In this document: in pieces, positions 5,804-60,215 of the stretch
How positions within the stretch are numbered: the first letter of the stretch is position 1
Layout of the letters: each line of letters opens with the position of its first letter
Virus record (IMG/VR): IMGVR_UViG_3300042934_000426
Span: 40,951-104,950 of that record
Direction: 5' to 3' (one strand)
Length of the DNA stretch: 64,000 nucleotides
Source of the DNA: a virus
The notes under the pieces: generated by a model
Told to the model about the DNA's origin: nothing
The model's database searches: none
What the model saw: the letters and a program-made list of their open reading frames with translations, nothing else
Position numbers and translations under genes: made by a program

Positions 5804-5831
5804 AGTATAACCAACTTTGAACAAATGTCAA
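5804..5831 (-). promoter_or_regulatory. sigmaA-type promoter TTGACA-N16-TATACT with TTGTTCAAAGTTG in the spacer
   Basis: Direct reading of the minus strand upstream of the wHTH/DNA polymerase run. Confidence 0.65.
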
Positions 5832-5866
5832 CAAGAAAAGAAGCCCATTTTCAGGGCTTCCCTTGT

Positions 5867-10946: not shown

Positions 10947-10969
10947 CGTTGTTTAACTTTATATTTCTC

Positions 10970-10998
10970 ATTATAGAGGTGTCCTATACGTTTGTCAA
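10970..10998 (-). promoter_or_regulatory. Perfect-consensus sigmaA promoter
   Basis: TTGACA-aacgtataggacacctc (17 nt)-TATAAT; TTGTTCAAAGTTG lies immediately upstream of the -35. Confidence 0.9.
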
Positions 10999-11144
10999 CA
11001 ACTTTGAACAAAATTATTTTATCGGTTTAGAGAATGTTTTATGACACGAATAGCAAACGTAATCTATTTCTGTATCACCTGGAAAAATAACCAAAAAGTC
11101 TGTGTCTGTACTTCCACAGTTAGGGCAACCTACTTTATTAGCTG

Positions 11145-11726: not shown

Positions 11727-13520
11727 CTATATCAGGTCTAGTAAGTCTTGTGGTGAGCTGAAGAGCTTCTTCATCACTACCTCGTCTTCGTCTACGATGG
11801 CTTTGAAGAGCTCCCGCTTGTTCTCTAGGATTTCGAGCTTCTTCTCTTCGTAGCTTCCTTCGGTAATCATGTTAATAGCGGTGACGGCTGACTTCACCCC
11901 GTTACGGTGGGCACGGGCATAAATTTGTTCCATCTTTTGCGGGTTGAATAGCTGGTCATAGCATATCACATATGACCCCATAGAAAGGTCTAGCCCGTAG
12001 TTACCAGCGGTGGTCATCAGCACACATTGAATGTCCCCGTTTTGGAATTCATTCTGAATCCGTCCTGTTTCGGTCGCTTTCAGTCCACCTTTGATGTAGC
12101 CAATTTGCTCCTTCCGAAGTCCTAACTTTTCATTGCTGGTTAGCCATGTGTAAAGTATGTCTGTCATTTCCTTGTATTGGCTGAACAGGATAAACTTGTG
12201 GCGGTGTGGGTCAAGGTCAACAATAATATCGCCTAGGGCGTTCATTTTTCCGCTTTCTTCAGGTAAGTTCGAATTTTCCATCACCTTCCGAAGTAGGGCT
12301 GGTGAATCGCATACTTGCTGAAGGCGGGTAATTTGCGCTAGTGCTTCCAGGTAGGAAAACTCGCTTCCTTGCTCTTTCGCGATTTCTAGGATTCCGTCTT
12401 TTACTTGCTTATACAGTCGTTGTTGTTCCTTCGTCATTTTAACCGAATAGTTAACCACGGATAGTGGTGGTAGGTCAGGTAGTGCGTCCGCTTTCGACTT
12501 CCGAAGCATGATAGGTTCTAGGCGCTTCGTCAGCTCACTAATCATTTGGGGCTTTGGTGCAACAGGTTTTCCAAAGAAGTCCATTTCTACATAGCGGTCT
12601 AGGAACTTGTAGTAAGTACCTAAGATACCAGGTCGGCAAAAATCGGTTAGTGTCCATAGTTCTTGAATGTTATTTTCAAGCGGTGTTCCTGTTCCCAGGA
12701 TTTTACGACCCGCTGGTTTCAGCTTCTTAATCAAGTTCTTCGTCGTTTGTGCCTTCGGGTTCTTAATACGATGGGCTTCGTCTAGGATAACCAACCAGCG
12801 TCCATCTACAGGTGGGATAATGTCCATATCCCGAAGGAAGAGCTCATAGTTCATAATCGTCACATCAGCCCCATATTCGTATTGCTGATATTGCACTTCA
12901 CGAAGCTTTGCACCTGTCAGCTTCTCCTTCGTACCGTCTTCCCATTCGACCGTTTCCCGCTTGTCACCGTCAATCACGACATATTCCAGCGACGTCCATT
13001 TTTTGACTTCCTTTTCCCAGGTGGAATACTTCAAAGGTGACGGGCATACCACCAATAGATAATCGACTAATCCTTTGTTCTTCCAATCGACGAAGCTCGC
13101 TAGCCCCGTGAGTGATTTTCCTAATCCCATATCGAAGGCTAGGATAGCACCCTCTCCGTCTTCGAGCGTATCCAGGAACGCCTTCCCTACCGCCTGGTAC
13201 GGGTAAAGCTCTCCTTTTAATCCTTTGATTTTTCCGCTTACTTTCTTTTCGTCAATGCTTTTCACGGCTACCGCTTTTTGCTGACGGTCTTTTAAGTCCT
13301 TGAATACTTGCTTGACAGCTGGTGCAATTTCTAACGAAGGCATAATACGCAAAGCGTCTTCGGTTGATTCTAATGGGATTTCCCAGCGTTTCGCTGAACG
13401 CTCCCAGGCTGACCCAGGGATTGCACGAATCAAGTCTTTATAGCTGAATGTCTTTCCAGCGAAATAAAGTGTTTTGCTACTGCCTTCTGATAACTGTAAA
13501 CTGATTGTCATATGTGACAC
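11727..13520 (-). CDS. SNF2-family helicase/translocase
   Basis: LYPYQ, DMGLGKS, LDEAHRIKN, TGTPLENN, ILFSQY, GLDL and QIYARAHRNG motifs; HARP-like N-terminus. Confidence 0.92.
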   Translation of the reverse strand: MSHMTISLQLSEGSSKTLYFAGKTFSYKDLIRAIPGSAWERSAKRWEIPLESTEDALRIMPSLEIAPAVKQVFKDLKDRQQKAVAVKSIDEKKVSGKIKGLKGELYPYQAVGKAFLDTLEDGEGAILAFDMGLGKSLTGLASFVDWKNKGLVDYLLVVCPSPLKYSTWEKEVKKWTSLEYVVIDGDKRETVEWEDGTKEKLTGAKLREVQYQQYEYGADVTIMNYELFLRDMDIIPPVDGRWLVILDEAHRIKNPKAQTTKNLIKKLKPAGRKILGTGTPLENNIQELWTLTDFCRPGILGTYYKFLDRYVEMDFFGKPVAPKPQMISELTKRLEPIMLRKSKADALPDLPPLSVVNYSVKMTKEQQRLYKQVKDGILEIAKEQGSEFSYLEALAQITRLQQVCDSPALLRKVMENSNLPEESGKMNALGDIIVDLDPHRHKFILFSQYKEMTDILYTWLTSNEKLGLRKEQIGYIKGGLKATETGRIQNEFQNGDIQCVLMTTAGNYGLDLSMGSYVICYDQLFNPQKMEQIYARAHRNGVKSAVTAINMITEGSYEEKKLEILENKRELFKAIVDEDEVVMKKLFSSPQDLLDLI

Positions 13521-13534
13521 GCTCCTTTTGTTTT

Positions 13535-13588
13535 GGGGGTTCTATCCCCTCATGATTAACATACATACGCTTTTATTCTTTCTCTACG
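13535..13588 (-). promoter_or_regulatory. Phage-type promoter plus 5' hairpin (copy 1)
   Basis: CGTAGAGAAAGAATAAAAGCGTATGTATGTTAATCATGAGGGG...CCCC; conserved at four loci. Confidence 0.7.
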
Positions 13589-14323: not shown

Positions 14324-14344
14324 TTCGCCAGCTCCTTTTCACTT

Positions 14345-14373
14345 AGTATACCACAACTTTGACTAAATATGAA
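14345..14373 (-). promoter_or_regulatory. sigmaA-like promoter TTCATA-N17-TATACT with extended TG
   Basis: Spacer contains TTAGTCAAAGTTG, a variant of the shared 13-mer. Confidence 0.55.
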
Positions 14374-14401
14374 CAACTTCGTTCAAGTAAAAAGCTGGGT
14401 A

Positions 14402-17854: not shown

Positions 17855-18048
17855 AAAAAATTTTGGGAAATCGCCTATTACGTATCAACTCGTACGTAAT
17901 ACTCAATGACACACGCTATAGTGTCTATCTGAAAAATTTTTTATTTTTCTCTCCGCTGATAAAAAATAAAAAAATAAATTTTTGAAAATCAAAACCCTTG
18001 TGACACCACTACTACGTACCAACTCGTACGTAATAGAAGGTTTCCCAT
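17855..18048. repeat. ~190-bp intergenic element A: two 26-bp dyads flanking an A/T-tract core
   Basis: TATTACGTA-TCAACTCG-TACGTAATA at 17876-17901 and TACTACGTA-CCAACTCG-TACGTAATA at 18010-18035; inverted homologue at 48233-48426. Confidence 0.9.
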
Positions 18049-18898: not shown

Positions 18899-18957
18899 GG
18901 GGAGCTTTAAGGGCTCCCCTCATACTTAACATACATACGTCTTTTGTTTTGCTCTAC
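18899..18957 (-). promoter_or_regulatory. Phage-type promoter plus 5' hairpin (copy 2)
   Basis: GTAGAGCAAAACAAAAGACGTATGTATGTTAAGTATGAGGGGAGC...GCTCCCCT. Confidence 0.7.
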
Positions 18958-19535: not shown

Positions 19536-19594
19536 GGGGAGCTTCGGAAGCTCCCTCATACTTACCATACATACGGCTTTTATTTTCCTCTACG
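19536..19594 (-). promoter_or_regulatory. Phage-type promoter plus 5' hairpin (copy 3)
   Basis: CGTAGAGGAAAATAAAAGCCGTATGTATGGTAAGTATGAGGGAGCTTCCGAAGCTCCCC. Confidence 0.7.
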
Positions 19595-19961: not shown

Positions 19962-20014
19962 AGGGGCTTTCCCCCTCATTATTACCATACATACGTCTTT
20001 TATTTTATTCTACG
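19962..20014 (-). promoter_or_regulatory. Phage-type promoter plus 5' hairpin (copy 4)
   Basis: CGTAGAATAAAATAAAAGACGTATGTATGGTAATAATGAGGGGG-AAAG-CCCCT. Confidence 0.7.
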
Positions 20015-45840: not shown

Positions 45841-47454
45841 CTATAAGCCTAATTGTTGTCTAAGCGATTCAGGTAATCCTAGGCTCTGAAGCGGTGTGCC
45901 AGCTTCGAATCTAGCAATAGCAGAACCAGGGATTTCCCCTTTATCGAAGCTCTTCATCAGAATATTCCCGATTTGATTTCGATTTAAAGGTTGACCACCT
46001 GTTTCGATAGACTTCTGAAGTGTTTGCACTTCACGCCCGCTTACGACGCTTTTGCGTCCTACGGGACGGTTTAACACTTCGTTAAGTGACTTTTCAAGCG
46101 AATCAATGCGTTCCGCTTGCGCTTCGATAACCGCTAAGGACTTTTGCATAGCTTCACCGAAGGTTGCAAGTGACTTAACAATCGTGTTTTGTTGCTTCGT
46201 TACACTTCCCATCGACTTTTCGAATCCTTCTAAATAGAATCCGATTTCGTCTGTTAAAGAAGTGAGGAAGTCAGACACTTCGAACGCTTGACCGTGTTCT
46301 TCCGCTAATGACTTCGAAAGATTCGTGCGAAGGGATTTCTCGACTTCTTCGTCGTCCTCTCCGTCGCCTTCGTCCCCTTGGTCGTCATCGTCCTGGTCAC
46401 CTTCGTCACCTTGGTCGTCGTCGTCCTGGTTACCTTCGTCATCGTCCTCATTCATGGACTTTTCAAGGTCTTCGTCTTCTTCGTTTTCGAAGTCGTTTTC
46501 GTCCTCTTCATTGTCCATTTCAAGAGATTTTTGAAGCTCTTCTAAGTCTGTGTCTAACAAACTAGAAAGAGTATTCTTCACGTTTTCAGGCATACTAGCA
46601 CCTCCTATAAATTTTTGAATGGATTTCAATATTGGTAGCTTTTCAGCTATATACGAAGCGAAGTCTTCCGCTTCATCATAATCCAGCCCTTTTGATAACG
46701 CACAATGTAAGGCTTCGATTTCTATGTCGTCAGCATAGCTGGTTACGAATGATTTCTTTAGTAGCTCCTGTTTAACGAAGCTTCGAAATAGGTTTAACCA
46801 ATCGTCTTGCGGGTCAGGTGTTTTCACACCGCCTTCGAGCGACTGTGGCGTGACGGCATGAATGGCTCCTATGTCCATAGACTTGTCCATTTCAGGCATA
46901 TCAATCGTCAACTCATGGTGTTTAGCGAAGGACTTCGCTAGTTCAGCCCATGTAGTTGTATTGACAGGATTCATCGTTAAAACAACGTTCCGAAGGACAG
47001 ATTTCACAATCTTTCCTGTTTTACGGTCACGCTCTTTGACGTTTCCTTCGATTGACCAGCCCATTGTACGCTTCGTATTCGACTTTTGAAGGTCTTCGAT
47101 AGTCTTTACCGCTTGGCGGGTTAGTTCACGCTGGGCAAACAATCTCCCTTTTACGTGGATTCCGTTCACCGACTTTTTAATGGTCGGATGTTCGAAGCGT
47201 CCTACCTTCACTTCTAAAGGTTCACCGATAAACTGATTCGGGCTATTCCCATGCTCGTATTTTATCCAGCCTTTTTCTAAGAAGTAGGAGCAATCCATCC
47301 CTTCGGGGCTTATGCTATCATCCTCTTCGTCTGTATCATCCGAAGACATCACACCTTGTACGATGTAATCACCGTTTTCATCTACCTCGATAGACTTTTC
47401 GATGGGTACATAGAGATTATAGGTATCCGATAAGACGTTAAATGGTTCGCTCAT
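45841..47454 (-). CDS. Prohead protease fused to scaffold
   Basis: G.MS...D...D, IKYEH, GWSIEG and LT.NPVN..T protease motifs; acidic coiled-coil C-terminal half with many xxKS motifs. Confidence 0.88.
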   Translation of the reverse strand: MSEPFNVLSDTYNLYVPIEKSIEVDENGDYIVQGVMSSDDTDEEDDSISPEGMDCSYFLEKGWIKYEHGNSPNQFIGEPLEVKVGRFEHPTIKKSVNGIHVKGRLFAQRELTRQAVKTIEDLQKSNTKRTMGWSIEGNVKERDRKTGKIVKSVLRNVVLTMNPVNTTTWAELAKSFAKHHELTIDMPEMDKSMDIGAIHAVTPQSLEGGVKTPDPQDDWLNLFRSFVKQELLKKSFVTSYADDIEIEALHCALSKGLDYDEAEDFASYIAEKLPILKSIQKFIGGASMPENVKNTLSSLLDTDLEELQKSLEMDNEEDENDFENEEDEDLEKSMNEDDDEGNQDDDDQGDEGDQDDDDQGDEGDGEDDEEVEKSLRTNLSKSLAEEHGQAFEVSDFLTSLTDEIGFYLEGFEKSMGSVTKQQNTIVKSLATFGEAMQKSLAVIEAQAERIDSLEKSLNEVLNRPVGRKSVVSGREVQTLQKSIETGGQPLNRNQIGNILMKSFDKGEIPGSAIARFEAGTPLQSLGLPESLRQQLGL

Positions 47455-48232: not shown

Positions 48233-48426
48233 ATGGGAAACCTTCTATTACGTACGAGTTGGTACGTAGTAATGGTGTCACAGAGGTTTTGATTTTCAAA
48301 AATTATTTTTTTATTTTTCTTCACCTGAAGGATAAAAATAAAAAATTTTTCTCTTAGACTTCGAACGTCTGCATGCCACTATTACGTATCAACTCGTACG
48401 TAATAGAGGGTTTCCCAAAATTTTTT
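48233..48426. repeat. ~190-bp intergenic element B, inverted homologue of element A
   Basis: 26-bp dyads at 48246-48271 and 48380-48405, with the same 134-bp spacing as in A. Confidence 0.9.
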
Positions 48427-48477: not shown

Positions 48478-51400
48478 CTAAAGCATTATAACCAGTTTTA
48501 GGGACTTCGCTACCGCTTTCCCTTGGGTTGTTCCACTTCCGACTTTTAAATCACTTGTCTTCGGTGTTTTCACCTTCGGAAGTGTTTGGTTTTGCGCCCC
48601 TTTCGGCTTGGCACCCGCTTTACGCTTGGCGCTTCGTGAAAACCCTCTTCCTGTCATAGCACGGGCTGAAGCGGTATCACTCAACTTGTCTTGCTTCTCT
48701 AGTTGCTTCGTTGAATTCACCACATTCGAAATATTCTTCATTTTCGTATCCTGTGCGTCAAACATGAAGTCTTCGATGGTTCCAGGCATATGAAGCGATT
48801 CGACACGGGTTGTGTTGGCTCTGCCTACTGCCTTATGGGACTTCCAGCTATCCGAACGTCTGACACGGGCGGTAAACTGTGCCATTTTCTGTGGGTTCCA
48901 GTCTTGGTCGAAGTGTATCATCATGTGAGCGTTTCCGAAGTCAACGCCTTCTTTACCCGCTGGTGATACCGTCGTTGCCCATAGGTGACCTTGGTTGTTC
49001 ACGTAGTCCGCTCCGCTATCAGCCTTCGAACCACGGAAGCCTACCTTCGTATCTTCACGGTCTGTCGCTTCCCCTGTGAACTGTCCATGACCGAACTTGT
49101 CGCCTACCTTCGAAGCCCACTTATGCAATTCAGGATGTCCCGTTTCAGGGTGTGCCAGGTCTTTTAGTACTCCGTCCACAATGTCCGTTCCGAAAGTAGT
49201 GTAAGAAGACTTCACCACTAGCTTCGGCATGATTTCAGGCTTACCAGCCTTACGTCTTTCGTTGTTCTCATGAGCTACTTCATCCAGGTACTTCGATACA
49301 CGTTCCTTCAGGTAATCAGCCTTCGGGTTGTTGTGGTGAAGTGGAGCTAGAAGCTTTGGTGACCCGTCTTCGTTTTTCAGGTAACCGCCTTTGCCATCGC
49401 TTTCATAATAACGCTTGTGACCGTCCCCGTCTACTTCGAAAGGAATCGGCTCGCTCTTATCCTTTTTGTCCCCGCTTGTAGTCTGCTGTACTCCTGTGGC
49501 TTCGCTATCGAAGGCATTGGAACCAGGGACATACATTTTGCTCGCTAGTGGGGCGTTTAGGTACTTCTGAAGCTTCTGCATAGCGGTTAAATAGTTTTGG
49601 CTCTTCTTCCCGCTGGCATTATCGAAGCCCGTTGTAGAAGCTTGCTGAAGTTCCTGAAGCTTCGACTTCGGAAGGTACTTTTCCTGAAGCTGGCTGTACT
49701 CGTCGTACATTTTTTGCATGCTCGGCTTCATATTCGTCGGCTTGAACGTACGAACTTCGTACTCTTCCCCGCTCTTCGCTTTGGCTGTGACTGTGCCTTC
49801 GTCGAAGTCGGTGATACTATGCTTCGTTCCATAGTAGTCGTTGGTCGCATGGTCACGGCTTCGGTCTACTAAGTTACCTACGAAGTCATTTTGTGGGTTC
49901 GGATTGTCAGGCGTTCCACTCGCTCCTGATAAGTGTGGGAAGTGGATTTTCGAACCGTCGTTAAACTTTACATCTTCCCCGCCACGGAATTGAACGAAGT
50001 TGGCTAGAATGTCCCCTAGCTTACCCGCCTTCGCTGGGTTGACCCCGACGATTTTCCCGTTTCGGTCTTTAATCATATACTCATTGGTGAATTCCTGACG
50101 TGAGCCTAGCTCATGTTTCCCGCCTGAAATGGTGTCAATTAAGCTGTGAATCTCACGGGCGTCATTTTCCATTGGCGTTCCTGATAAGCCCCATACGTTT
50201 TTGAACTTGTCGGTCGCTTCGGCTAGAGACTTCCCGCGCTTCCCGCCCTGGTTCTTAAAGGCGTGTACTTCGTCAATCGTAATGTTATCGTACAATCCCG
50301 AAGCTGTTAACGCGTCTTTGTTTCTCATAAAGGTGTCATAGCTCATGATATGGAAGTCATGGTCAGAATCGTGGTGAGCGTCTAGGTTGTTTAGCAAGTC
50401 CTTCGTATGAACGACTTCGTGCTCTTTACCCGCTTGACCCCACAGTTTCTTACCGTCTTCACCCTTCGTATGACCGCTGAAAGACGAAGACCCCCCGATA
50501 AACGCACCCTTCATTGAAGTGTGGTCGGTGATTTCCTTACCCCAATCGGACATAATCCCCTTCGGAGCCACAATGAGCGTTTTCTTCGGCTTTTGTCCCT
50601 TAGATAATTGCTTCGCCTTATAATGGGCGTGAGCGACAACCCCTAGAATGGTCTTACCTGTTCCCATTCCGTGACCCGCAATACCACGCTTACGCTCGAC
50701 TAGGTGAGCTACCCCTTGTAGCTGTGTGCCGTACAATCCTTGCTTTTCATCCATAAGGAAGCTCTTCGGATTGAATTGAGCCTTGTAGTGGTCATCGAAG
50801 CTTCCGCGCTTCGTATTGACTTGTGACGGCTGGTAGTTTTCCTGGTAATATTTACGTCCTTCGGGACTGTCAATATCACGGAATACTCGGTCTTTACTTC
50901 GGAAGTAGTCGGCTAGGTGCTCCTGTGCGTCATGTGCCATCGAGATACCGCTACCTTCACGGGAAAGTATGTCCCGAAGTTCTTCGAACTTATTGGTGGA
51001 CACTTTCGCTATACCGTCCTTACTTACTGCAACCCCTTCGCTCGCTACTACGTCCCGAAGGTGTTCAGGAACGTGCAAGTCTAGGTCTTTGGTGTAACTC
51101 GACTTGAATTGCTTCAATAACCCTTTGCCCGCCTTCGAGCGTCCTAAGACCTTCTCTAAGCGTTTCATTTGGCTATCGTTTAATTCCAGGTCTTTCTTCA
51201 GGTTGCCTTCTTTATCGAAGGCGGTGGTGTTGATTTTGGCTTTCTTTAGCGCTTCGGCAAATAAGGTTTTCGCCTTTTCTGCTCTAGCTGTATCACGTTT
51301 GCCTTCCGAAGCTGGTTTGAATAGGTCATTCGTGTTCATACGGTGTGTACCCGTTTGACCCACTTTCAATACGGCATTACCGCTATTGGATAAGGTACGC

Positions 51401-54400
51401 CCTTTTTCCTTCGCTGGTTTCAGCTCATTCTTATTGAATAGCCCGACAAGCTGACCGTCGCTGTTGATAACCTGGAAAGCTCCGTTTTCCGTTTCCTGAG
51501 TAATCTTACCCTTTTTCCATGTGTTTCCGTCTTGGTACATGACCGCATTGCCTTGTTTCATTTTGACGTCATTCACATTGGTATGTTTTCGGTCGACTAA
51601 TTTCCCATTTTTGAATAAAGCTTTGATAGGTTCGCCTGTCGAAGGGTCTACTGCTCCCTTCGGAATATCGCGACTATCAATGTATCGATATCCCTTATAG
51701 GTTCCTGAAGCCACTACAGGAGCGCCTTTCCCATCGTATAGTAGCTCAATATGGTGCCCCAATGCGTCCCCAATGTGGACGTCACTTCCCGCATGAGCCG
51801 TTACCCAGGCACGATTACCGACGGCATTTTTCATGACTTCGTGAAGGTCTTCAGCCGTATTCACGTCTTTATGTTGCTTCAGAAGTCTAGCCATGATAGG
51901 GTCAGTGATTTTCCCGCTTCCATCCACTTCGATAACGTTTTGGGTGCCGTCTTCGTTTTCTTGGGCAAAGGTCTTACGTCCCGTCTTCGCGTCGTGGTCA
52001 ACTAGCTTGAAGTTCTTGTGCGTCATTTCGTCTTGCATACCTAGTCTTGTTTGGCTTCGGAAGCTCTTGGCTTCGTCTTCGGATAGCTCCTTGAACATCG
52101 GGCTTGTGCCGTCTTTGTTAGCGTCCGCTAGTAACTTTTCCGAAGAGTTGATATTCGTCCCCAGGTACTTGTTTAGCTTTGACCAGCTATGCGCGATATC
52201 GTCAGTTGCAAAGTGCTCTCCTGTTTCAGGGTCGAAGGCTTCGGAAATGTATGATGTATAGTTATTTTTCTTGTCGTCCATACGGTGAGCGACTTGAACA
52301 ACCATACTTTTCCCTGTCGTTGGGTTACCAATTTGGTAGTGCCCTTCAGGTATCATACGCTTCGTCATTTCTTCTCCCGCACGGGTCATTTCCTTTTGTC
52401 CGATTAGGCTAGCCAGCTCGTCCGTTGATAGGTCTTTCTTTGCCATTTCCTGTATGGTTGAACTCATACCATCTTGGCTTCGAAGTGCCATAGAGTTAGC
52501 GGTTTTCGAGATAGCTTCGAAGTCGGCTTTGTGCTCCTTAAAGAAGTTTTCAGCGTCCTTTTTGGCTGGCTTCGTAATGCCGTTTTCTTCTAGGTATTGC
52601 TTGTATGCTTCCACTTTGTCCTGAAGGAAATTGGCGACGTCTTCCGTTAGGATTTTATGCCCTACGAAGCGTTTTCGCTCTTCGTCACCCATTGAATCGT
52701 AGGCTTCTTTTTCTTCGTCGGATAAAGTGTGATACATGCCGATACCTTTATGGCTATGTTCCTTCGCTTTTTGCTTAATTCCGCTTACGTGGTCTTTCAG
52801 GTTCTCTAAGTCCTCTTCGAAGGCTTGAATTCCCATATCTAAGCGGTCTTTGTCTTCGTCCCCGTGGTTGAATTCCAGCTCGCCTGTTTCGTGGTTGATT
52901 TTCGCCCCGAATTTGTTCATGTGCATATCCTTCGCACGGGCGGTCTTCTTCGAATCGTCTTTAATCTTTGCCCACTCTTCATGAGCTTTGGCTTCCTTGT
53001 TCTTACGGTGCTCGGCTAGTTCTTCCTCTTCATGGTGGAATTCTAGTCCTTCTTCCTGGTCAGTGATACCATGGTTTTTCGCTTGTTCCTCTCGGTGGCT
53101 AGAGTTTTTAGAATCGTACTTGATTTCCCCATCACCTGTGATAAGGATTTTTTTACCGCCCCAGCTAATCCACGCTGACCCAGGATTCTTGACGAGAAGT
53201 TCTTCAGACCAGGTAAGTGCCCCTTGTTTCTGCTTTACCCGTTCCTGTTGCGTCTTCGCCATTCCCTGAATCTTAGCCTTGTTCTTTTTTGCGTATTCGC
53301 TTGCCTTTGCATTGGTGGAGCTATTCGAAGCCCCTTTATGGGCAAACATCGACTTTTGAAGCTCTTCGAATTCACCGAACGCCTTACGAAGCTCTTCGGA
53401 AGCTGGTAATGTGTGCTCGACGATTCGTGCACTTACCTGTCCTTCGTCATTAACGATATAGGCTCCGACGTACTCAGTAGGTGATAGAGATTTCTTAATA
53501 TCGAATAACGTTTCACCTGTTGCTACTCTTGTAAACTTCTGACGAAGGATACTCGCGTCAAGACCCCAGCTATTAAGGGACTTAATCAGGTTCAATTCGT
53601 ACCATGACTTCAAAATCATATTGAAGACGAAGCTCTTTAGCATAGCGAGCTGTTGAATGGCTGGATGATTGTTCGCATGAGCCTGAGCGATTTTCCCCAT
53701 AGCGCTTCGAACCCACTTGTCTACCCATTTTTCTCCATAGCTTGTTCCATGCACAGCATTATAGCGGTCAGCGATTTCCTGATTCGTTAAGTTCGCTTGG
53801 TTACGCTTTTCGGAAGGCTGGGAGAACTTATACGTCATCAGTTTAATTTCATCGTCACTTAATCCCATATCAGCCATAGCTTTCGGAAGTGTGCCTTCTA
53901 GTTCCTTCTGACGCTCTTTACGCTCATACACTTCTTCAGGGGAACGCCCTTCGTCCTGGATATTGCTTGTAATCGTTACGCTACCTTCTTCCGAAGCACG
54001 GTTCTTGTCGGCTGATACCGTCTTCTGCTGGCTTGCATAGGCACGAAGCTGACGAACACGTTCGGCTGGGTCGGTTTCTTGTTTGTTAGTCGCCACCCAC
54101 TCGCTTTTCTTATCATCCCAATAAGGAGCCTTGACGATTGGCGCTTCCTTGAATTCCTTCGAATTCTTCATAAGATGTGCGCCTAGTTCTTCGTCCGAAG
54201 GCGTACGTCCTAGCTCATGAGATAGCTGAGTGTGGGCGTTGTTCATATCCACATTTGCCATACGAACGGCATGCGGTAATGGGATATCGTTTAAGAAGTC
54301 ATACACGTCGTTTTTCAGCTTATCTTTGATACGTTGAGCTACATGTGCCCCCATATCGGCTGAAGGGTGCTGAGTGCCCGCCATGACGTTGTGGAGGGTT

Positions 54401-55386
54401 TCGAACATCGTCGCACGCGCTGACTGAAGCATATCACCATAGAAGCCTGTTTCCTGGTTGATGACGTTCTCGCTTCGGGTCGCTTTGTTCCCGATTCGGT
54501 TGATTTGCGAAGCTAGGTTCATACCTAGGGCACGACCACGCTTTAATACTAGGTGACGAGCAAACTTGTCATTCGCGTCTGTAATTTCTCCCGCTAACTT
54601 CTTAATGTCTTCGGCATTACGCTTTTCAGGTGGTAAGCTCATAAGCTTTTGTACCTTTGATGATTCCCACATTTCCGTAATGGAAGCATTATCCTTCGTA
54701 GCCGTTGCTTCGTTGAAATCCTGGACTTCTTGGTTCGCTTTATGGTTATCTTCGGTTTTGGTTAGGCGTTTAACAGGGTCAAGCTCTACGCGCTTAATCG
54801 CTGGTGCTTCTAAGTCACGCTTCTTTTTCGCTTGTCGAATCGCTTTGTTTTCAGCCGTCGCCTTCTTTTTCATATCCTTGACCTTTGCGGTTTGCGCTTT
54901 CTTCCGCTCTTTGGTTGTCTTGTTGACTTCCTTCATCACCTGTTTAACGGTAGGCTTTTTTGCTTCCGAAGCTGTTTTCGCCTTCTTTGCTGGTGCTTTC
55001 GTTGTCGGGTCAGCGATTACCTTTGCTTTACCTGTACCGTTTGCCTTCGTAGCGGTTTTGGTGGCTTTAGTTTTTTCTACCTTTGCCTTCGTTGCCTTCT
55101 TTTTCTTTTTGTCCGCTTTTTGGGCGTCCATGACCTTCTTATGGTCATTCGCATGAAGAACACTGTCCTTCGCTACTTTTGTGAGTTTTCCTTCGTCCGT
55201 CCGTACTTTGTAATGTCCGTCCCCGACTTCCTGGACTACCCCCGTTTTCCCTGTCTTCGTGACTACTCGGCTACCGCCTTTGACGGTGCTGAATTTACCG
55301 AACTTGTCCCGTGGGTGCATTTCTTCCCGCCAGCTTTTTTCAAGCTGAGAAGACAAGTCGATAAAAAGGAATGGTCTTGTTGCCAT
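48478..55386 (-). CDS. Giant polyvalent protein: sigma70-like domain plus SNF2 helicase
   Basis: N-terminal HPRD..GKF motif, KOW/SH3-like segment, Lys-rich linker, sigma regions 2-4-like segment; SNF2 motifs GMGTGKT, IDEVH, LSGTPMEN, EGVD, DWNP and QFTARVRR. Confidence 0.85.
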   Translation of the reverse strand: MATRPFLFIDLSSQLEKSWREEMHPRDKFGKFSTVKGGSRVVTKTGKTGVVQEVGDGHYKVRTDEGKLTKVAKDSVLHANDHKKVMDAQKADKKKKKATKAKVEKTKATKTATKANGTGKAKVIADPTTKAPAKKAKTASEAKKPTVKQVMKEVNKTTKERKKAQTAKVKDMKKKATAENKAIRQAKKKRDLEAPAIKRVELDPVKRLTKTEDNHKANQEVQDFNEATATKDNASITEMWESSKVQKLMSLPPEKRNAEDIKKLAGEITDANDKFARHLVLKRGRALGMNLASQINRIGNKATRSENVINQETGFYGDMLQSARATMFETLHNVMAGTQHPSADMGAHVAQRIKDKLKNDVYDFLNDIPLPHAVRMANVDMNNAHTQLSHELGRTPSDEELGAHLMKNSKEFKEAPIVKAPYWDDKKSEWVATNKQETDPAERVRQLRAYASQQKTVSADKNRASEEGSVTITSNIQDEGRSPEEVYERKERQKELEGTLPKAMADMGLSDDEIKLMTYKFSQPSEKRNQANLTNQEIADRYNAVHGTSYGEKWVDKWVRSAMGKIAQAHANNHPAIQQLAMLKSFVFNMILKSWYELNLIKSLNSWGLDASILRQKFTRVATGETLFDIKKSLSPTEYVGAYIVNDEGQVSARIVEHTLPASEELRKAFGEFEELQKSMFAHKGASNSSTNAKASEYAKKNKAKIQGMAKTQQERVKQKQGALTWSEELLVKNPGSAWISWGGKKILITGDGEIKYDSKNSSHREEQAKNHGITDQEEGLEFHHEEEELAEHRKNKEAKAHEEWAKIKDDSKKTARAKDMHMNKFGAKINHETGELEFNHGDEDKDRLDMGIQAFEEDLENLKDHVSGIKQKAKEHSHKGIGMYHTLSDEEKEAYDSMGDEERKRFVGHKILTEDVANFLQDKVEAYKQYLEENGITKPAKKDAENFFKEHKADFEAISKTANSMALRSQDGMSSTIQEMAKKDLSTDELASLIGQKEMTRAGEEMTKRMIPEGHYQIGNPTTGKSMVVQVAHRMDDKKNNYTSYISEAFDPETGEHFATDDIAHSWSKLNKYLGTNINSSEKLLADANKDGTSPMFKELSEDEAKSFRSQTRLGMQDEMTHKNFKLVDHDAKTGRKTFAQENEDGTQNVIEVDGSGKITDPIMARLLKQHKDVNTAEDLHEVMKNAVGNRAWVTAHAGSDVHIGDALGHHIELLYDGKGAPVVASGTYKGYRYIDSRDIPKGAVDPSTGEPIKALFKNGKLVDRKHTNVNDVKMKQGNAVMYQDGNTWKKGKITQETENGAFQVINSDGQLVGLFNKNELKPAKEKGRTLSNSGNAVLKVGQTGTHRMNTNDLFKPASEGKRDTARAEKAKTLFAEALKKAKINTTAFDKEGNLKKDLELNDSQMKRLEKVLGRSKAGKGLLKQFKSSYTKDLDLHVPEHLRDVVASEGVAVSKDGIAKVSTNKFEELRDILSREGSGISMAHDAQEHLADYFRSKDRVFRDIDSPEGRKYYQENYQPSQVNTKRGSFDDHYKAQFNPKSFLMDEKQGLYGTQLQGVAHLVERKRGIAGHGMGTGKTILGVVAHAHYKAKQLSKGQKPKKTLIVAPKGIMSDWGKEITDHTSMKGAFIGGSSSFSGHTKGEDGKKLWGQAGKEHEVVHTKDLLNNLDAHHDSDHDFHIMSYDTFMRNKDALTASGLYDNITIDEVHAFKNQGGKRGKSLAEATDKFKNVWGLSGTPMENDAREIHSLIDTISGGKHELGSRQEFTNEYMIKDRNGKIVGVNPAKAGKLGDILANFVQFRGGEDVKFNDGSKIHFPHLSGASGTPDNPNPQNDFVGNLVDRSRDHATNDYYGTKHSITDFDEGTVTAKAKSGEEYEVRTFKPTNMKPSMQKMYDEYSQLQEKYLPKSKLQELQQASTTGFDNASGKKSQNYLTAMQKLQKYLNAPLASKMYVPGSNAFDSEATGVQQTTSGDKKDKSEPIPFEVDGDGHKRYYESDGKGGYLKNEDGSPKLLAPLHHNNPKADYLKERVSKYLDEVAHENNERRKAGKPEIMPKLVVKSSYTTFGTDIVDGVLKDLAHPETGHPELHKWASKVGDKFGHGQFTGEATDREDTKVGFRGSKADSGADYVNNQGHLWATTVSPAGKEGVDFGNAHMMIHFDQDWNPQKMAQFTARVRRSDSWKSHKAVGRANTTRVESLHMPGTIEDFMFDAQDTKMKNISNVVNSTKQLEKQDKLSDTASARAMTGRGFSRSAKRKAGAKPKGAQNQTLPKVKTPKTSDLKVGSGTTQGKAVAKSLKLVIML

Positions 55387-55467
55387 TTGGTCTACCCCCT
55401 TCGTTAAATAGAAAAGGCTTCTTCCGAAGCCCCTTCGTTGTCCTTCTTATTTTAGCAAACATTGGCA

Positions 55468-58400
55468 CTACTTGGCTATCGGAATTACGAGCATACCTTC
55501 AGAAGAAGTTTTTCCCTTCACGACGATTTCACCGTCCACGGCTCTTATGTGGTCAGGCTTCGGAAGAGCGATAACATACGCCTGGCTTTCATTGTACAGG
55601 TCATAGTTACTCCTAGCGTAACCTTGTGCCTGGCTGTATAGGGTCGAGAAGCACGTATAAGAATTGTTCTTGTCTGCGTCGTTTCCTTTACCCTTCGATT
55701 CAACGAAGCCGTTCTTTCGGATAAAGTCTAGCTCCTTTTGACCAATGCCACGGTAGATATAGTTTTCGTCGTCAGCGAATACCTCTTTGCCCAGGGCTTC
55801 CCTTCCGATTCGTCGAAGTTCGTCTTCGCTGAGTAACCTTCCGTGCTTCTTTTCATGGTGCTGGTGATGGTGCGTATGGGCTGGGTAGTGAAATCCCTTC
55901 CATACCTCCTGATACGCTTCGATTGCCCGCTGGCGTTCGATTTCATTCGGTGTATTCATGACCACACACGGAACATGGGTAAAGTCACACAGGTGACTAG
56001 CTTCGTAGCGGTGTTGACCGTCGTGTATATCATAATTGAAGCCTATCACAATCGGTTCTAGATTTTCACCCGCTACCATACGTTCGACGTTCTCCTGTAC
56101 CTTATCCCAATTCGTTGCCTTTTCCGTTTGGTAAACCGTTTTTAATCGGTTGAGTGGGATATAAATGACTTCCGAAGGATTCGGTACGTTATAAGCGCTT
56201 CGGCTACCCCTGAATTGGGCGTTTAGGTTGGTACTGTGTATACTACCTAATAACTCTTCTAGGCTCACCCGACGCATGTTTCCAGGTACGTCGAAGCTCT
56301 TCAGCAATTCCATTTCCAGGGCTTTCTTCAGGGCTTTGTTCTTCGAAATGTAGCTCACTAGGGCTTCCATGTGCTTGTGCATGTGGGCGCGTTCTTTTCC
56401 TAGTGGGAAAGGTGCTCCTAGGGCTTTGACCGCCCCTTCTTCTGTTCCATGCACCAGGTAGTTGTTATAGCGTTTGTCCTTCTTCAATTTATCCTGTACG
56501 TAGCTTTCGAAGACCCTGGCGAAGACTTCGGCTGGTTGTGACCAATAGTGTGCCCCGTTCTGTTGCTTGCCTGGCTGGGTCATTTCCATACGGCTCATGT
56601 ACTCACTTTTGCCTGTTTGGATTTCAATATGACCTCTGTACGGCTCACCGCTGTACTTCCCGCCATTTTGCTTTAGTTGAAGCTCTTTTGCCAGGTAGTG
56701 CGGTAGCTCGTTTAGTTCCCGTTTCCGCTTTTGTTCATACTTCTTAATCTCTTTTTCCCTAGCTGTGTCATTGCTATAGTAGGAGCTCGTCTTCACCCGA
56801 CTAATAGCGGTGTCATACTGGTTGTTAATCTTACTCGACCAATGCTGGTACACTTCTTCAGGCTTCATGCCACTACCGACTTGTCTACGCATTTCAGGGT
56901 AGTAGCGTCCGATACTCTTCGCTTCGGAATCGAGTAGGAGTTGGACTGTCCCGCCTGGCTCTCCTGGTGTCGGCTTCTCAATCGCTTCCATGACGTTGTT
57001 AAAAAGCTCTTTTAGCTTCGGGTCATGGTTGCCCATGCTTCCTTCCGAAGCGTGACCCAGGGATTCTTGTCCCCCATTGCTGTACTGATACATAATGTTA
57101 TCTAAGGCATGACCCCATTCGTGAGCTAGTGAACCCGCTCCCCCGTACTTCGTCATATTAATAACCTTACGGTCAGGTTCATAGTGAGCTAGTGAACCAC
57201 CCTTCCCTCTCGCTCCGAAGGCAATGGCTAGTCGTCCGTTAAGAGAAATATCCTTCGGGTCGATTCCCAGCACGTCGGATAGGTCGTTAAAGGCTTCGGC
57301 ACAGCGCTGAAGGTGGTACTTCCCGCTAGAATCATTGACCCAATTTCCGAACTCGACGCCACGCACCCCGAAGTCTTTCATCAGGTCTTCAGGCTTCATG
57401 ACCTTCGTTGGTTTCCCGCCTGTACGAAGGTGCTCGGCTTCGGCTTTGCGCTCCCATACCTTATTTTCTTCGCCTTTTTTCTTCGGTGCCTTTTTAGCTT
57501 GCGGGGTCAGGTACTTGTCCCATCCTTCTTTTGTGTTCTTGTTCACGGTCTGAATCGTTCGGTCACGGCTGTCCCAATCGGTAAAGAAGTTATTGAATTT
57601 CTCCCCCAGGGCTTCGAAGTTGAACGCTTGCTTATCCTTCATACCCTGAATAAAGCGGTCTTCGTATTCCTTTTTGAGCTTTTTGGCTTGCTCGATTTCT
57701 TCGGGCTTCAGTGGGAAACGCTCATACTGTGAAATACCGTTTGCGCGCTTCGTTTGATATTCAATCGTTCGTGCCCAGCTTGAAAGGTTCTTTGTGCTGG
57801 TATTGCGTCCGTATTCGGACAGTTCCCGAATGGCGTTACGCATATTTTCCCAGGTCTTAATCCCCGCTATTTGTCGATGAAACTTCGTCATAGCCACTAA
57901 GTAGGCTTTACGGGTTTCAGGTGTGGACGGGTCAGGCTTCGGAGCCATTCTATCGAAGAGCAATTTCTTCATGATAGCTGTTGGAAGCTCCGTCCCGTTG
58001 GCATGCTCGTCTTCGAAGCTGAATCCTGGTAGTAGGTTCGCCTTCGTGACCATCTTTTCCGCAATCGCCCCGCTCATTTTTTCTAACTCGTCTAGGCTCG
58101 TTGCGGTTGGCTTCGCCTTGAATCCAGCGATAAATTCGTCCTTACGTGCTCCCCCTACCTTGTCGCCTACGTCATACGCTAGTTCTCGATTCTTTTGGGC
58201 TTCGTGACGTGTATCTTTGGCGTTCTTTTTACCAGCGGTTTTGGGTTTGGTAGCTCCACCTTCGGAAGTGGCTTTGGGTTTTCCTGAAACAGGCTTTCCA
58301 GCTCCGCTTGACTTAGTTTCGGTGGTTGCTCCTTTGCTAGTACTTTTTGGTTTAGTTGTTTTAGTAGCACGTTTACCCGCTCCTTCTGTTTTCGTAGGTT

Positions 58401-58797
58401 TCGAAGTGGTTTTCTTAGGTGCTTTTGTGGTCTTCGGTTCTTTTACTTCCGAAGCTTGCTTGCTAGTCTTTTTTGGCTCTTTTCCTTTGCTTGCTCCTGA
58501 AGCTTTTTTAGGTTCGGCTTTGCCTTTACTTTTACCAGCATTTTTCTTCTCTCCCTTTTTGGGCTTCGAAGTTTTATCGTGATTTTCTTGGTGCTCTTTT
58601 AACTGTGCCTTCGTTGCCTTTTTTGCTCCCGAAGCTCCTGGGATAGCCCCCGCTAGCACTTTCCCATCTTTAATGTAAATATGGTGACCTTTAACGGTTT
58701 TCCACTCACCGCCAGGCGGTAGCTCTTTATGAACCGCCTTGGCTTGTGTCCGTGTAATCGCTTTGATTAGGTCAAATTCTCCTGGTTTGAGTATCAT
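55468..58797 (-). CDS. Polyvalent protein: LPD5/LPD1-like zincin, ParB-like and ART-like domains
   Basis: DVGDKVGGARKD; GVEFGNW...AHEWGHALD...EVFARVFESYV; PIVI...IHDGQHRYEA; YRGIG...CFST..YA. Confidence 0.8.
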   Translation of the reverse strand: MILKPGEFDLIKAITRTQAKAVHKELPPGGEWKTVKGHHIYIKDGKVLAGAIPGASGAKKATKAQLKEHQENHDKTSKPKKGEKKNAGKSKGKAEPKKASGASKGKEPKKTSKQASEVKEPKTTKAPKKTTSKPTKTEGAGKRATKTTKPKSTSKGATTETKSSGAGKPVSGKPKATSEGGATKPKTAGKKNAKDTRHEAQKNRELAYDVGDKVGGARKDEFIAGFKAKPTATSLDELEKMSGAIAEKMVTKANLLPGFSFEDEHANGTELPTAIMKKLLFDRMAPKPDPSTPETRKAYLVAMTKFHRQIAGIKTWENMRNAIRELSEYGRNTSTKNLSSWARTIEYQTKRANGISQYERFPLKPEEIEQAKKLKKEYEDRFIQGMKDKQAFNFEALGEKFNNFFTDWDSRDRTIQTVNKNTKEGWDKYLTPQAKKAPKKKGEENKVWERKAEAEHLRTGGKPTKVMKPEDLMKDFGVRGVEFGNWVNDSSGKYHLQRCAEAFNDLSDVLGIDPKDISLNGRLAIAFGARGKGGSLAHYEPDRKVINMTKYGGAGSLAHEWGHALDNIMYQYSNGGQESLGHASEGSMGNHDPKLKELFNNVMEAIEKPTPGEPGGTVQLLLDSEAKSIGRYYPEMRRQVGSGMKPEEVYQHWSSKINNQYDTAISRVKTSSYYSNDTAREKEIKKYEQKRKRELNELPHYLAKELQLKQNGGKYSGEPYRGHIEIQTGKSEYMSRMEMTQPGKQQNGAHYWSQPAEVFARVFESYVQDKLKKDKRYNNYLVHGTEEGAVKALGAPFPLGKERAHMHKHMEALVSYISKNKALKKALEMELLKSFDVPGNMRRVSLEELLGSIHSTNLNAQFRGSRSAYNVPNPSEVIYIPLNRLKTVYQTEKATNWDKVQENVERMVAGENLEPIVIGFNYDIHDGQHRYEASHLCDFTHVPCVVMNTPNEIERQRAIEAYQEVWKGFHYPAHTHHHQHHEKKHGRLLSEDELRRIGREALGKEVFADDENYIYRGIGQKELDFIRKNGFVESKGKGNDADKNNSYTCFSTLYSQAQGYARSNYDLYNESQAYVIALPKPDHIRAVDGEIVVKGKTSSEGMLVIPIAK

Positions 58798-60215
58798 CGT
58801 GTAAACCCCCTCATGAACGCCTGAACGTCCCCTAGTGACTTTTCTAGAGCGTCCCTGTCGTCAATCGCTCCTACGTATAAGTGTAAGCCTTCGTCGTCGA
58901 TATGGTGATGGAGTAGGGTGTGACCTACATTTGACTTCCGAAGTGCTTTAATCGCTTTTAAAAGTAACGCCTTTAACAGGTCTAGCTTGCCTTGTTCGTT
59001 GTAATCAATACCCTTACCGTGGTCTTTCACCTGTATAATGCTAGGGTCATAGACACCTATTTGCCAGCCTTCTTCCTTGAATTCGTCGAGCTTATCGACG
59101 ACGGCTTTGTACCCATTCTTCTTGGCGAATATTTCGTAAGGAGATACCTTCATAGGCTTCACGTCACGTCCCCATAGCTTCTTTAGTTCTTCTGCTTGTT
59201 CGTTGAAGGTGCTATAGTTTTGCTCAGGTGACCAACTACTTGTGTCGATACCTTTCAAATGCTTTAGAACGAAGCCCATCATCTTTTCCATTGTGCCTTC
59301 GTTGTAGTGGTCATTAAAGTCCTCAAGGATATCTTGTAGTTCCTTTGGTCGCCCGTTTGTGCAATCCAAAAGGTGCTTCTTCGGTACAAGTGCCTTTACG
59401 ACCGCTGGGGCTTTCTTTTCGGTGAAGAAATCCACAATTTCCTTCGTGTCATTTCCTTTGCTCCGTCCGTCCGTGTACTTACTTGGTACAGGTAGTCCCT
59501 TTGCTTGTCGGTCAGCTATCCACTTTTGACGGTCGTCGTGGTCTTTGTGGTCGAAGGCTGGACTTTTGAAATAGGCACAGTTTCCGAAGTCATCCCATGA
59601 CCCCTGTAGTTTATGGATATAGTCGAAACCGTTCGCTAAGATATTGTCCAGTCGGGCTAGCTTCGTGCCGTGGAACATTTCGACGGTTTCTTCGGAAGTT
59701 TGCTCTTCCTTTGGCTTTGCTGGTTTGGCTTGCCTTTTTAGTTTTGTATCAATAACTAGCTTCGGTTCTTTCTTCGAAGGTGCTTTTGCTCCTGTCTCCG
59801 TTGCTTTCGGTTTGGCGGTGGTGCTAGGTTTACTTCCACTAGCGGGTTTAGGTTTTGGGCTACTTGATACCCCTGAAACAGTCTTTTTAGGCTTTTTAGA
59901 AATCTCACTCTTTTCAGCTCCTTTGGTTTTCGAAGCTGGTGTTTTCGCTTTGGTGTTTTTCTTCGCTTCTTTATCGATGTGTGCCTGGTGTGCTTTTAGG
60001 TGTTCCTTCGTCGCCTTCTTAGGCTTCGTCACCCCAGGAATACTACCCGCTAACACTTTGCCGTCCTTTATGTAGACGTGGTGACCTTTAATCGTACGCC
60101 ACTCGCCCCCGTCGGGTAGGTCTTTATGGACGCTTTTGGCTTGGCTTCGGGTAATAGATTTGAATAAATCCAGGTCGTCATTGACTACCTGGATTCCGTG
60201 TAGGTTTACTAGCAT
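58794..60215 (-). CDS. Polyvalent protein with an ADP-ribosyltransferase-like (PARP/HYx-type) domain
   Basis: MFHGT...NILANGF...FGNCAYF; N-terminal module shared with the downstream gene. Confidence 0.7.
   Translation of the reverse strand: MLVNLHGIQVVNDDLDLFKSITRSQAKSVHKDLPDGGEWRTIKGHHVYIKDGKVLAGSIPGVTKPKKATKEHLKAHQAHIDKEAKKNTKAKTPASKTKGAEKSEISKKPKKTVSGVSSSPKPKPASGSKPSTTAKPKATETGAKAPSKKEPKLVIDTKLKRQAKPAKPKEEQTSEETVEMFHGTKLARLDNILANGFDYIHKLQGSWDDFGNCAYFKSPAFDHKDHDDRQKWIADRQAKGLPVPSKYTDGRSKGNDTKEIVDFFTEKKAPAVVKALVPKKHLLDCTNGRPKELQDILEDFNDHYNEGTMEKMMGFVLKHLKGIDTSSWSPEQNYSTFNEQAEELKKLWGRDVKPMKVSPYEIFAKKNGYKAVVDKLDEFKEEGWQIGVYDPSIIQVKDHGKGIDYNEQGKLDLLKALLLKAIKALRKSNVGHTLLHHHIDDEGLHLYVGAIDDRDALEKSLGDVQAFMRGFTR

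Follow-up and report, generated by a model that had tools for sequence, protein, structure and literature searches.

Can a phage bring a ready-made sigma factor into its host together with its DNA? The question is raised by one gene in a window of 64,000 nucleotides, the whole stretch of DNA that we analysed, which comprises bases 40951-104950 of the 104,950-bp IMG/VR record IMGVR_UViG_3300042934_000426 (complete according to CheckV). The gene encodes a giant protein, P0001, whose domain order is N-terminal tag, Lys-rich linker, sigma module, motif cluster, middle region and SNF2 ATPase, with tag and linker filling the N-terminal 250 residues. An earlier reading of the DNA, the original prediction, had placed a sigma70-like factor within this protein at positions 53640-54600 (P0001 residues 263-582) and had proposed that it is delivered, already made, from the virion. 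We find that residues ~255-571 are a diverged but complete sigma-70-family module, running from regions 1.2/2.1 to 4.2. The proposal of a pre-made, virion-delivered factor is partly supported by sequence evidence, and we give the combined explanation developed below, in its essentials, a probability of about 45%.

48478..55386, minus strand: giant head-module protein P0001, 2302 amino acids, from the list of open reading frames and its translation

The evidence for homology comes from profiles and from structure. By hhalign, a domain-only alignment (A2) of the window module and 13 IMG/VR loci was compared with six genuine sigma factors, namely E. coli RpoD, E. coli FliA and four from one Eubacteriales genome; it matched them with a probability of 97.1% and an expectation (E) value of 6.7e-11, the 243 aligned columns beginning at region 1.2/2.1 and closing with region 4.2. 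When the A2 profile was searched against all PDB sequences, 42 of the 44 matches were sigma factors. These matches include SigA/FliA regions 2.4-3.1, the best being B. subtilis SigA (7ckq_F, E 3e-5, regions 2.4-3.1). A PDB search with the single sequence gave FliA (1rp3) as its sole match, at E 0.4. The Pfam model Sigma70_r3 was matched by 14 of 14 A2 members (best E 4.9e-7), the window protein scoring 19.4-22.3 bits against a cut-off of 25.3, and Pfam gave no match to Sigma70_r2 or Sigma70_r4 in the window protein. Sigma70_r4 was recognized in distant homologues: P0035 reached 27.4 bits, the only one above the gathering score, and P0037 and P0039 matched weakly. All seven weak NCBIfam matches were to sigma families at colinear positions, and the best of them, FliA_WhiG (E 1.3e-4), lay far under its cut-off.

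Structure prediction led to the same family. An AlphaFold2 (AF2) model of the sigma fragment, with a predicted local distance difference test (pLDDT) score of 69.6, was compared with the PDB using Foldseek, and the top 50 of 50 rows were sigma factors, aligned over 320-380 columns; TM-scores were low because the domains are arranged differently. The best rigid superposition (VIA-align) placed sigma-2 on WhiG 7lq4_A with Z 8.3 and a root-mean-square deviation of 3.0 Å over 99 residues. The original prediction had read sigma regions 2-4 in order and had named the absence of a sigma fold from profile or structure searches as one of the results that would speak against it; such a fold was found by hhalign (97.1%) and by Foldseek (50/50), and hhalign, the PDB profile search and Foldseek all point to sigma factors. 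Identity to known sigmas is only ~15%, and we have little doubt that the module's homology to sigma factors is genuine. It is no copy of the stand-alone SigK/E-like sigma that this phage also encodes, described below; the hhalign probability for that pair is 1.9%.

The subdomains of the module are as follows, all on the minus strand.

54292..54624, minus strand: sigma domain 2 (regions 1.2/2.1-2.4), residues ~255-365, from hhalign, the WhiG superposition and invariant columns
54052..54291, minus strand: sigma domain 3 (regions 3.0-3.1), residues ~366-445, from Pfam Sigma70_r3 (14/14), PDB profile matches, hhalign and AF2 secondary structure
53929..54051, minus strand: region 3.2-like linker at the 'sigma finger' position, residues ~446-486, from hhalign to the sigma70 3.2 segment
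53674..53928, minus strand: sigma domain 4 (regions 4.1-4.2, helix-turn-helix, HTH), residues ~487-571, from hhalign, Sigma70_r4 in distant homologues and a six-phage alignment

The peptide strings on which the original prediction was built all occur in the translation, in the order it gave, and its region assignments agree with the independent hhalign result. GDMLQSA aligns with sigma70 region 2.2 (LDLIQEG) and IPLPH with region 3.0 (IRIPVH); the LGRTPSDEEL stretch falls on region 3.1, TVSADK...SPEE on the 3.2 linker and LSDDEIKLM...LTNQEIA...VRSAMGKI on regions 4.1/4.2. Nowhere in the module are invariant residues packed as densely as in region 2.2. Here D318 and Q321, which align with sigma70 D403 and Q406, are invariant in 31 sequences. 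The region 2.2 helix that carries D403/Q406 in sigma70 docks on the beta-prime clamp helices and so binds the core enzyme. Further on, the positions of sigma70 Y430, W433 and W434 are taken by an invariant His (H348), Gln/Ser (Q351) and an invariant Arg (R352), and the position of Y425 is a gap. Because E. coli FliA also has Gln-Arg at the W433/W434 positions, this pair is a group-3-like feature rather than a sign of decay. H372 aligns with sigma70 H455 in region 3.0, and the 3.2-like linker has an acidic S-x-D...SEGE...SPEE pattern, with AF2 pLDDT below 50 at fragment residues 225-259. Within the recognition helix of region 4.2, W554-V555 is invariant and the neighbouring positions vary. Two insertions are specific to the family: one of 12-25 amino acids between regions 2.1 and 2.2, and one of ~32 amino acids after region 3.1 that is predicted by AF2 to form a small beta-hairpin.

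In character the module appears to stand nearest to two groups of sigmas, group 3 (FliA/WhiG-like) and group 1. With group 1-3 factors (SigA/RpoD, FliA/WhiG/SigD, SigB/F/G) it shares the order sigma-2, sigma-3, 3.2 linker, sigma-4, the region 2.2 Asp/Gln pair, the region 3.0 His and the 4.2 HTH. It differs from them in being embedded in a 2302-residue protein within a head-assembly block rather than free-standing, in its ~15% identity, in the His at Y430, in the insertions between 2.1 and 2.2 and after 3.1, and in a longer HTH turn. Judged by sequence, it is not a group 1 sigma: the hallmarks of that group (Y425, Y430, W433, W434 and the region 1.1/1.2 N-terminus) are missing. As for group 3, FliA/WhiG is best in NCBIfam (weakly) and in the rigid sigma-2 fit, yet the best profile match is SigA.

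Homologues with the same architecture number 31 in a collection of 5.8 billion proteins, with 40-81% identity over the sigma part; the majority have the SNF2 ATPase fused to the module, six of them are ~1550-1616 residues long, and some already carry the Pfam r3 label. Shorter forms also exist (P0032, P0034 and P0037). The family is rare, since only 11 representatives occur among 1.84 billion clusters. A single-sequence scan of IMG/VR gave nothing, whereas 14 loci came from a scan that used the alignment. None of 50,697 deposited phage records was matched by nucleotide or protein search. A scan of 185,579 species genomes detected no relative of the module, so that route offers no cultured relative, prophage form or host.

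Why should a sigma module lie in a head-assembly gene block? The gene order on the minus strand is portal, a 436-residue protein, two small genes, a 473-residue protein, a 1109-residue protein, the giant protein, a 91-residue protein, protease-scaffold and major capsid protein, with portal, protease-scaffold and capsid identified via PHROGs. The order portal-p436-p473-p1109-giant-p91-protease-capsid is kept in 14 of 14 related IMG/VR contigs. The head-region setting of the giant SNF2 protein, part of the original prediction, is thereby confirmed, and its polyvalent context in the head module is conserved in relatives.

55468..58797, minus strand: 1109-residue polyvalent neighbour (Pfam LPD1, E 6.9e-18; PHROG ParB-like nuclease)
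58794-60215, minus strand: 473-residue neighbour with a faint PARP-like match (E 0.009)
45841..47454, minus strand: prohead protease-scaffold protein (PHROG 1028, head maturation protease)

The 473- and 1109-residue neighbours begin with a common N-terminal tag of 60 residues (BLASTP E 7e-32) with the core G-G-E-W-x-T-x-K-G-H-H-x-Y-I-K-D-G-K, followed by Lys/Pro/Thr-rich linkers. The same tag heads the sigma-module proteins of two distant relatives, P0034 and P0037, and tag and cargo are thus interchangeable. P0001 begins with a candidate leader.

55132..55386, minus strand: N-terminal ~85 residues, candidate capsid-targeting and processing leader, with an LEKS|W motif at residues 15-19 and an HPRDxxGKF motif
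53347..53643, minus strand: six [LIVMF]-x-K-[SA] motifs at residues 582, 591, 600, 630, 666 and 676 (Poisson P ~2.5e-6)

This N-terminus includes a small SH3/KOW-like barrel with a weak match to YajC (E 0.2), and its LEKS|W-region motif is kept in 24 of 30 homologues. In the protease-scaffold protein, [LIVMF]-x-K-[SA] motifs number 18 where 1.2 would be expected (z 16). Of 11 head-module proteins, 7 have the motif in their first 35 residues, as against 15 of 96 others (Fisher p 0.0012); the form h-x-K-S is common to the giant protein, capsid, scaffold and portal. Across the whole giant protein there is no overall enrichment, with 13 motifs against 8.9 expected. Directly after sigma-4, six fall within 95 amino acids (residues 582-676) where ~0.37 would be expected; each of them is conserved in 21-30 of 30 homologues, and residues 621-685 are predicted to be disordered. 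The original prediction had described cleavage motifs immediately after the sigma part. Their presence holds, and their role as cut sites is drawn from analogy: by comparison with T4 and phiKZ head proteins, the cluster is a candidate cut zone for the prohead protease. A scaffold-like, capsid-binding segment is an alternative candidate, and either role would place the giant protein in the prohead. Taken together, these sequence features and the gene neighbourhood make it probable that the giant protein is capsid cargo.

If the module enters a cell, does it bind RNA polymerase (RNAP)? The original prediction had proposed modelling it with the Bacillus enzyme, and we ran the prediction with sigma-2 and residues 200-350 of B. 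subtilis beta-prime. Three runs scored 0.00, 0.59 and 0.60, with a median of 0.59 against 0.00 for the best of three controls; the verdict of this test is 'weak support'. The runs agreed in at least 37% of contacts and the partner had a pLDDT of at least 47. Of 80 solved complexes 58 pass the mark used, and so do 2 of 110 mismatched pairs; only 7 of those 80 pass with a score of 0.60 or less, as do both of the mismatches that pass. We consider core binding by the module more likely than not, slightly less so than packaging.

Host and phage gene content define the setting in which such a factor would act. The genome encodes a small acid-soluble spore protein (SASP) of the alpha/beta type (G000:C1:22929-23093, plus strand; Pfam SASP, E 7e-22), G000 being this phage's own genome. 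Among the control genomes only B. subtilis was positive for this family, and the gene was absent from the four relatives tested. There is also a stand-alone sigma factor.

G000:C1:28720-30117 (= L015:415-1812), minus strand: stand-alone SigK/SigE-like sigma, 465 amino acids (SigK/SigE models, E ~1e-44)

Its sigma part ends near residue 210 and is followed by ~250 extra C-terminal residues. From the SASP gene and this SigK/SigE-like sigma, the host is very probably an endospore-forming Firmicute, so the Bacillus-like host of the original prediction stands only in this broad sense. The stand-alone sigma is found in G000 and in the relatives G002 and G003. The complete genomes G004 and G005 lack it, and G004, G005 and G006 have no sigma other than the embedded module, the sole sigma-family protein common to the clade. 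A multisubunit RNAP (PF00623) gave no match in five related genomes although the positive controls were detected, which indicates that these phages depend on the host polymerase. The single-subunit family (PF00940) also gave no match in five genomes, but it was unseen in every control genome and this result is uninformative.

Which promoters might the module read? The genome contains repeated promoter-like cassettes with the layout GCGTAGAG, an A-rich spacer, CGTATGTATGkTAA, a GGGG...CCCC hairpin, an A-rich leader and the ribosome-binding site AGGAGCTGG. Genome-wide there are 13 copies of the core 10-mer CGTATGTATG, every one on the coding strand, and 11 of these copies are full cassettes. They precede non-structural genes, mostly small ORFans and a second SNF2-type helicase, and none of the 11 lies in the structural region. 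Read as a candidate promoter, the cassette would be GTAGAG-N18-TATGGT, and transcripts would be expected to begin at the hairpin's foot; a generic sigma-70 scan did not detect the cassettes. Four of the copies, within the window, are listed here together with the helicase gene.

13556..13587, minus strand: cassette copy GTAGAG-N18-TATGTT, followed by hairpin, A-rich leader and Shine-Dalgarno sequence; candidate cognate promoter
18926..18957, minus strand: cassette copy
19562..19593, minus strand: cassette copy
19982..20013, minus strand: cassette copy
11727-13520, minus strand: second, stand-alone SNF2-type helicase, 597 amino acids (PHROG 62, as the giant protein's ATPase, E 3.5e-109), with a cassette upstream

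The exact G000 pattern is absent from the relatives, which carry variants of their own. Analogous cassettes were present in 6 of 6 genomes (G000 and five related ones) with a conserved TRTG-TATRGT, TTTG in G006, and the same N18 spacing. The -35-like hexamer upstream is specific to each phage. It is set out here beside the module's 4.2 helix, written from the invariant W-V.

G000: hexamer GTAGAG; helix W-V-D-K-W
G002: hexamer yTAGAA; helix W-V-A-N-R
G005: hexamer yTAGAA; helix W-V-D-N-R
G003: hexamer TAAGAG; helix W-V-E-N-T
G004: hexamer GTCCAC; helix W-V-N-K-Y-Y
G006: hexamer GTAyAC; helix W-V-N-K-Y-Y

The G004 and G006 helices differ by Asp/Gln at the position before W-V. The G005 module is overall nearer to that of G003 (57%) than to that of G002 (53%), yet its hexamer and helix go with those of G002. 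The hexamer thus appears to vary in step with the 4.2 helix, an anecdotal correspondence (n = 6) that is a lead and not a test. As G004 and G005 have cassettes and no SigK/E-like gene, the stand-alone sigma is not the general reader of the cassettes. That the embedded module reads them is a tentative proposal from these sequence patterns, at odds somewhat short of even.

Assembled, these elements suggest a mechanism of four steps, which we infer in decreasing order of confidence. The giant protein would be loaded into the prohead, like its two neighbours, by means of its N-terminal leader. The prohead protease would then trim it at LEKS|W and within the h-x-K-S cluster just after sigma-4, freeing a fragment of ~565 amino acids made up of leader remnant, Lys-rich linker and sigma. 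This fragment would be ejected with the DNA, and its region 2.2 would bind the host core RNAP at the beta-prime clamp helices. Finally, the resulting holoenzyme would read the phage-specific cassettes, that is GCGTAGAG, an 18-nt spacer ending in TATG, TATGGT and the 5' hairpin leader, to yield a class of phage transcripts for which no phage protein need be made beforehand. As separate cargo, the SNF2 motor and the middle region would have other roles. In its most specific form, in which a processed sigma packed in the capsid and injected with the DNA reprograms host core RNAP at once to private cassette promoters, with a code readable from the covariation of 4.2 helix and hexamer, the proposal is more speculative than cassette reading taken singly.

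Several observations weigh against a delivered, promoter-reading sigma factor. The window protein stays under the Pfam gathering score for every sigma region, so by curated thresholds the module is a remote homologue and not a member. The aromatic residues with which sigma70 melts the -10 element are replaced (Y430 by His, W433 by Gln/Ser and W434 by Arg), and the turn of the 4.2 HTH is unusually long, exceeding that of sigma70 by 6-10 amino acids. According to AF2 the h-x-K-S motifs lie partly in predicted helices, and it is analogy that makes them cut sites. The pass in the complex prediction may stem from the predictor's memory of sigma/beta-prime structures already solved. The covariation comes from six related genomes, which do not allow a statistical test, and TRTG-TATRGT resembles the Gram-positive extended -10 element, one base out of register, which makes host SigA together with a phage activator at the variable hexamer a real alternative. 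Consensus sigmaA-type promoters (TTGACA-17-TATAAT and similar) are also present, often beside a GTTCAAAGTTGT motif; a packaged sigma is therefore not strictly needed, as the host holoenzyme could start there. The giant gene stands in the late, structural block, and its product could therefore act in the producing cell. Packaging, cleavage, core binding and initiation are all read from sequence and context in a phage that is uncultured.

Window 5750-5866: sigmaA-type promoter near GTTCAAAGTTGT
Window 10947-11013: sigmaA-type promoter near GTTCAAAGTTGT
Window 14324-14401: sigmaA-type promoter near GTTCAAAGTTGT
G000:C1:17537-17617: sigmaA-type promoter near GTTCAAAGTTGT

The motif GTTCAAAGTTGT, which also occurs in intergenic regions of the relative G002, may be an operator.

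The alternative that survives best makes the module a tether or decoy. It would dock on the host core through region 2.2 and have no promoter specificity, either sequestering core from host sigmas, and so shutting off the host, or bringing the SNF2 and middle regions to RNAP, while the cassettes would be read by host sigmaA with another phage factor. This fits the pattern of conservation, in which region 2.2 is the best-kept part of the module while the canonical melting aromatics are replaced and the HTH turn is elongated, and it would also accommodate the sigmaA-type promoters. Fusion to SNF2 in most of the 31 homologues agrees with it too, as the bacterial SNF2 protein RapA is associated with RNAP (PMC5512222), but the SNF2 part of P0001 matches remodellers of the ISWI/Rad54 type, and RapA is not among its PDB sequence matches. 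A decoy, moreover, would need neither the conserved region 3.0 His nor the acidic 3.2-type linker nor a complete sigma-4 HTH; the variable 4.2-helix positions track the -35-like hexamer of the cassettes, and the motif cluster and disorder that follow sigma-4, the former conserved, point to a module that is detached from the remainder of the protein. We regard the tether as unlikely.

Less likely again is a protein that is not delivered at all: a late intracellular protein or polyprotein whose module works in the producing cell, for example on the cassettes or on late genes, its place in the head block reflecting co-expression. The gene does belong to a late structural operon, and the phage sigmas characterised so far act after their synthesis in the infected cell (jumbo-phage survey, PMC7824862). 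This reading sits poorly with a position between portal and prohead protease that is kept in 14/14 relatives, with polyvalent neighbours of the LPD type, with N-terminal tags that are common and interchangeable, with a motif common to capsid, scaffold and portal, and with the lack of any of the 11 cassettes in the structural region. Least probable is an exapted DNA-binding or structural head protein whose HTH domains bind phage DNA in the capsid or at entry (condensation, end protection or SNF2 anchoring) with RNAP uninvolved: the long Lys-rich linker before the module, the HTH nature of sigma-3 and sigma-4 and the frequency of basic DNA binders among internal head proteins would suit it, but the core-binding residues of region 2.2 are invariant and the 3.2-type linker is kept, features that matter only in a holoenzyme, and free sigma factors generally bind DNA poorly.

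How would a delivered sigma factor compare with known strategies? Phages that take over transcription at entry are known to do so with an injected RNA polymerase (N4, phiKZ-like and crAss-like phages) or with an injected modifier of the host polymerase (T4 Alt). To our knowledge, phage sigma factors are known only as proteins made after infection. The proposed logic is that of the N4 virion RNAP, the phiKZ/AR9 virion RNAPs and the T4 Alt ADP-ribosyltransferase, proteins of late synthesis that travel in the head and enter with the injected DNA, so that the first transcripts need no new protein synthesis. No polymerase catalytic domain was detected in these phages (the single-subunit search being uninformative); in place of a polymerase or a modifying enzyme, they would deliver a specificity subunit for the host's RNAP. 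Stand-alone phage sigmas (SPO1 gp28 and gp33/34, T4 gp55 and this phage's own 465-residue SigK/SigE-like protein) are likewise sigma-family proteins that redirect host core RNAP, but they are separate genes expressed after infection, whereas the module is embedded and is present also in relatives that lack a stand-alone sigma. T4 Alt for its part retargets host RNAP (PMC5512222; PMC7824862).

The giant protein also has the features of the polyvalent proteins of phages and conjugative elements surveyed by Iyer, Burroughs, Anand, de Souza and Aravind in 2017 (PMC5512222), for example P1 DarB. Like them it is very large and multidomain, contains an SNF2 ATPase, has a head or early-entry context and is predicted to be delivered with the DNA; it combines several unrelated domains (sigma, SNF2 and a region of ~720 amino acids), and its head neighbourhood includes an LPD protein, the LPD1 and ParB-like neighbour. 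It differs in that its SNF2 part has no adenine methylase partner here and in that the target of the cargo would be transcription initiation instead of restriction. The word 'sigma' is absent from that survey (PMC5512222), and full-text literature searches found no virion-borne or ejected sigma factor and no sigma-SNF2 fusion. If the delivered-sigma explanation is true, this would be the first virion-delivered sigma factor and a third immediate-early route beside injected polymerases and injected RNAP modifiers. It would explain a private promoter class used from the first minute in a phage without a polymerase, and transcription-initiation factors would join the catalogue of polyvalent-protein domains. 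The matched pairs of sigma-4 helix and -35-like hexamer form a small natural experiment on sigma specificity and a possible source of orthogonal sigma/promoter pairs for Gram-positive hosts.

The remainder of P0001 consists of two large parts.

51187..53346, minus strand: middle region, residues ~681-1400 (~720 amino acids), with helical domains and small Tudor/SH3-like barrels (AF2 pLDDT 67)
48856..50724, minus strand: SNF2-family ATPase, residues ~1555-2177 (Pfam; PHROG 62; PDB matches ISW1, Rad54 and CHD1L)

Run on the whole protein, Pfam placed SNF2-rel_dom at residues 1555-1775 (E 1.9e-21) and also detected a remnant of Helicase_C and, below threshold, Sigma70_r3 at residues 381-412. By sequence comparison with the PDB (E up to 1e-3) the SNF2 part matched ISW1, Rad54, CHD1L, DDM1 and INO80, with RapA absent, and it resembles remodellers of the ISWI/Rad54 type. 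The middle region is conserved, with many invariant Gly, His, Asp and Trp residues. It had no match among PDB sequences, and Foldseek returned weak Tudor/Agenet matches, none under E 0.013, and no fold beyond Tudor/SH3-like barrels. A LAGLIDADG homing-endonuclease-like gene (L001:14137-14778, plus strand) lies inside the giant gene of the relative G002, near the start of the SNF2 domain. There the gene is split into a protein of 1590 residues with N-terminal, sigma and middle parts and an SNF2 protein of 726 residues whose Pfam match begins at model position 47.

Some further elements of the genome were observed. Between the 1109-residue gene and the giant gene, window 55387-55467 holds a GC hairpin followed by a T-run; this resembles a partial terminator and could reduce expression of the giant protein. 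A 30-kb segment with the tail and head genes is bracketed by an 86-nt inverted repeat whose arms (window 17963-18048 and 48233-48318) are 92% complementary. One arm lies just downstream of the giant gene, with a third copy of 42 nt (48376-48417) 100 nt away; the repeat is a candidate regulatory element, recombination site or late promoter. A 127-bp terminal repeat was considered as the physical genome ends, and an assembly overlap is more likely. The sequencing-run search gave a soil metagenome, probably the source, as the only run with this DNA and listed no RNA run.

A 9-mer, CTTCSGAAG, palindromic around its central S, is hugely over-represented in the window and in G000. The genome has ~72 copies of CTTCCGAAG on one strand and a similar number of CTTCGGAAG, mostly inside genes, and the excess extends to the relatives G002, G003 and G005 (L026-L047), which have 55-57% GC. 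The 9-mer could be a modification, binding or packaging-related site; in G004, at 43% GC, CTTCWGAAG is found instead.

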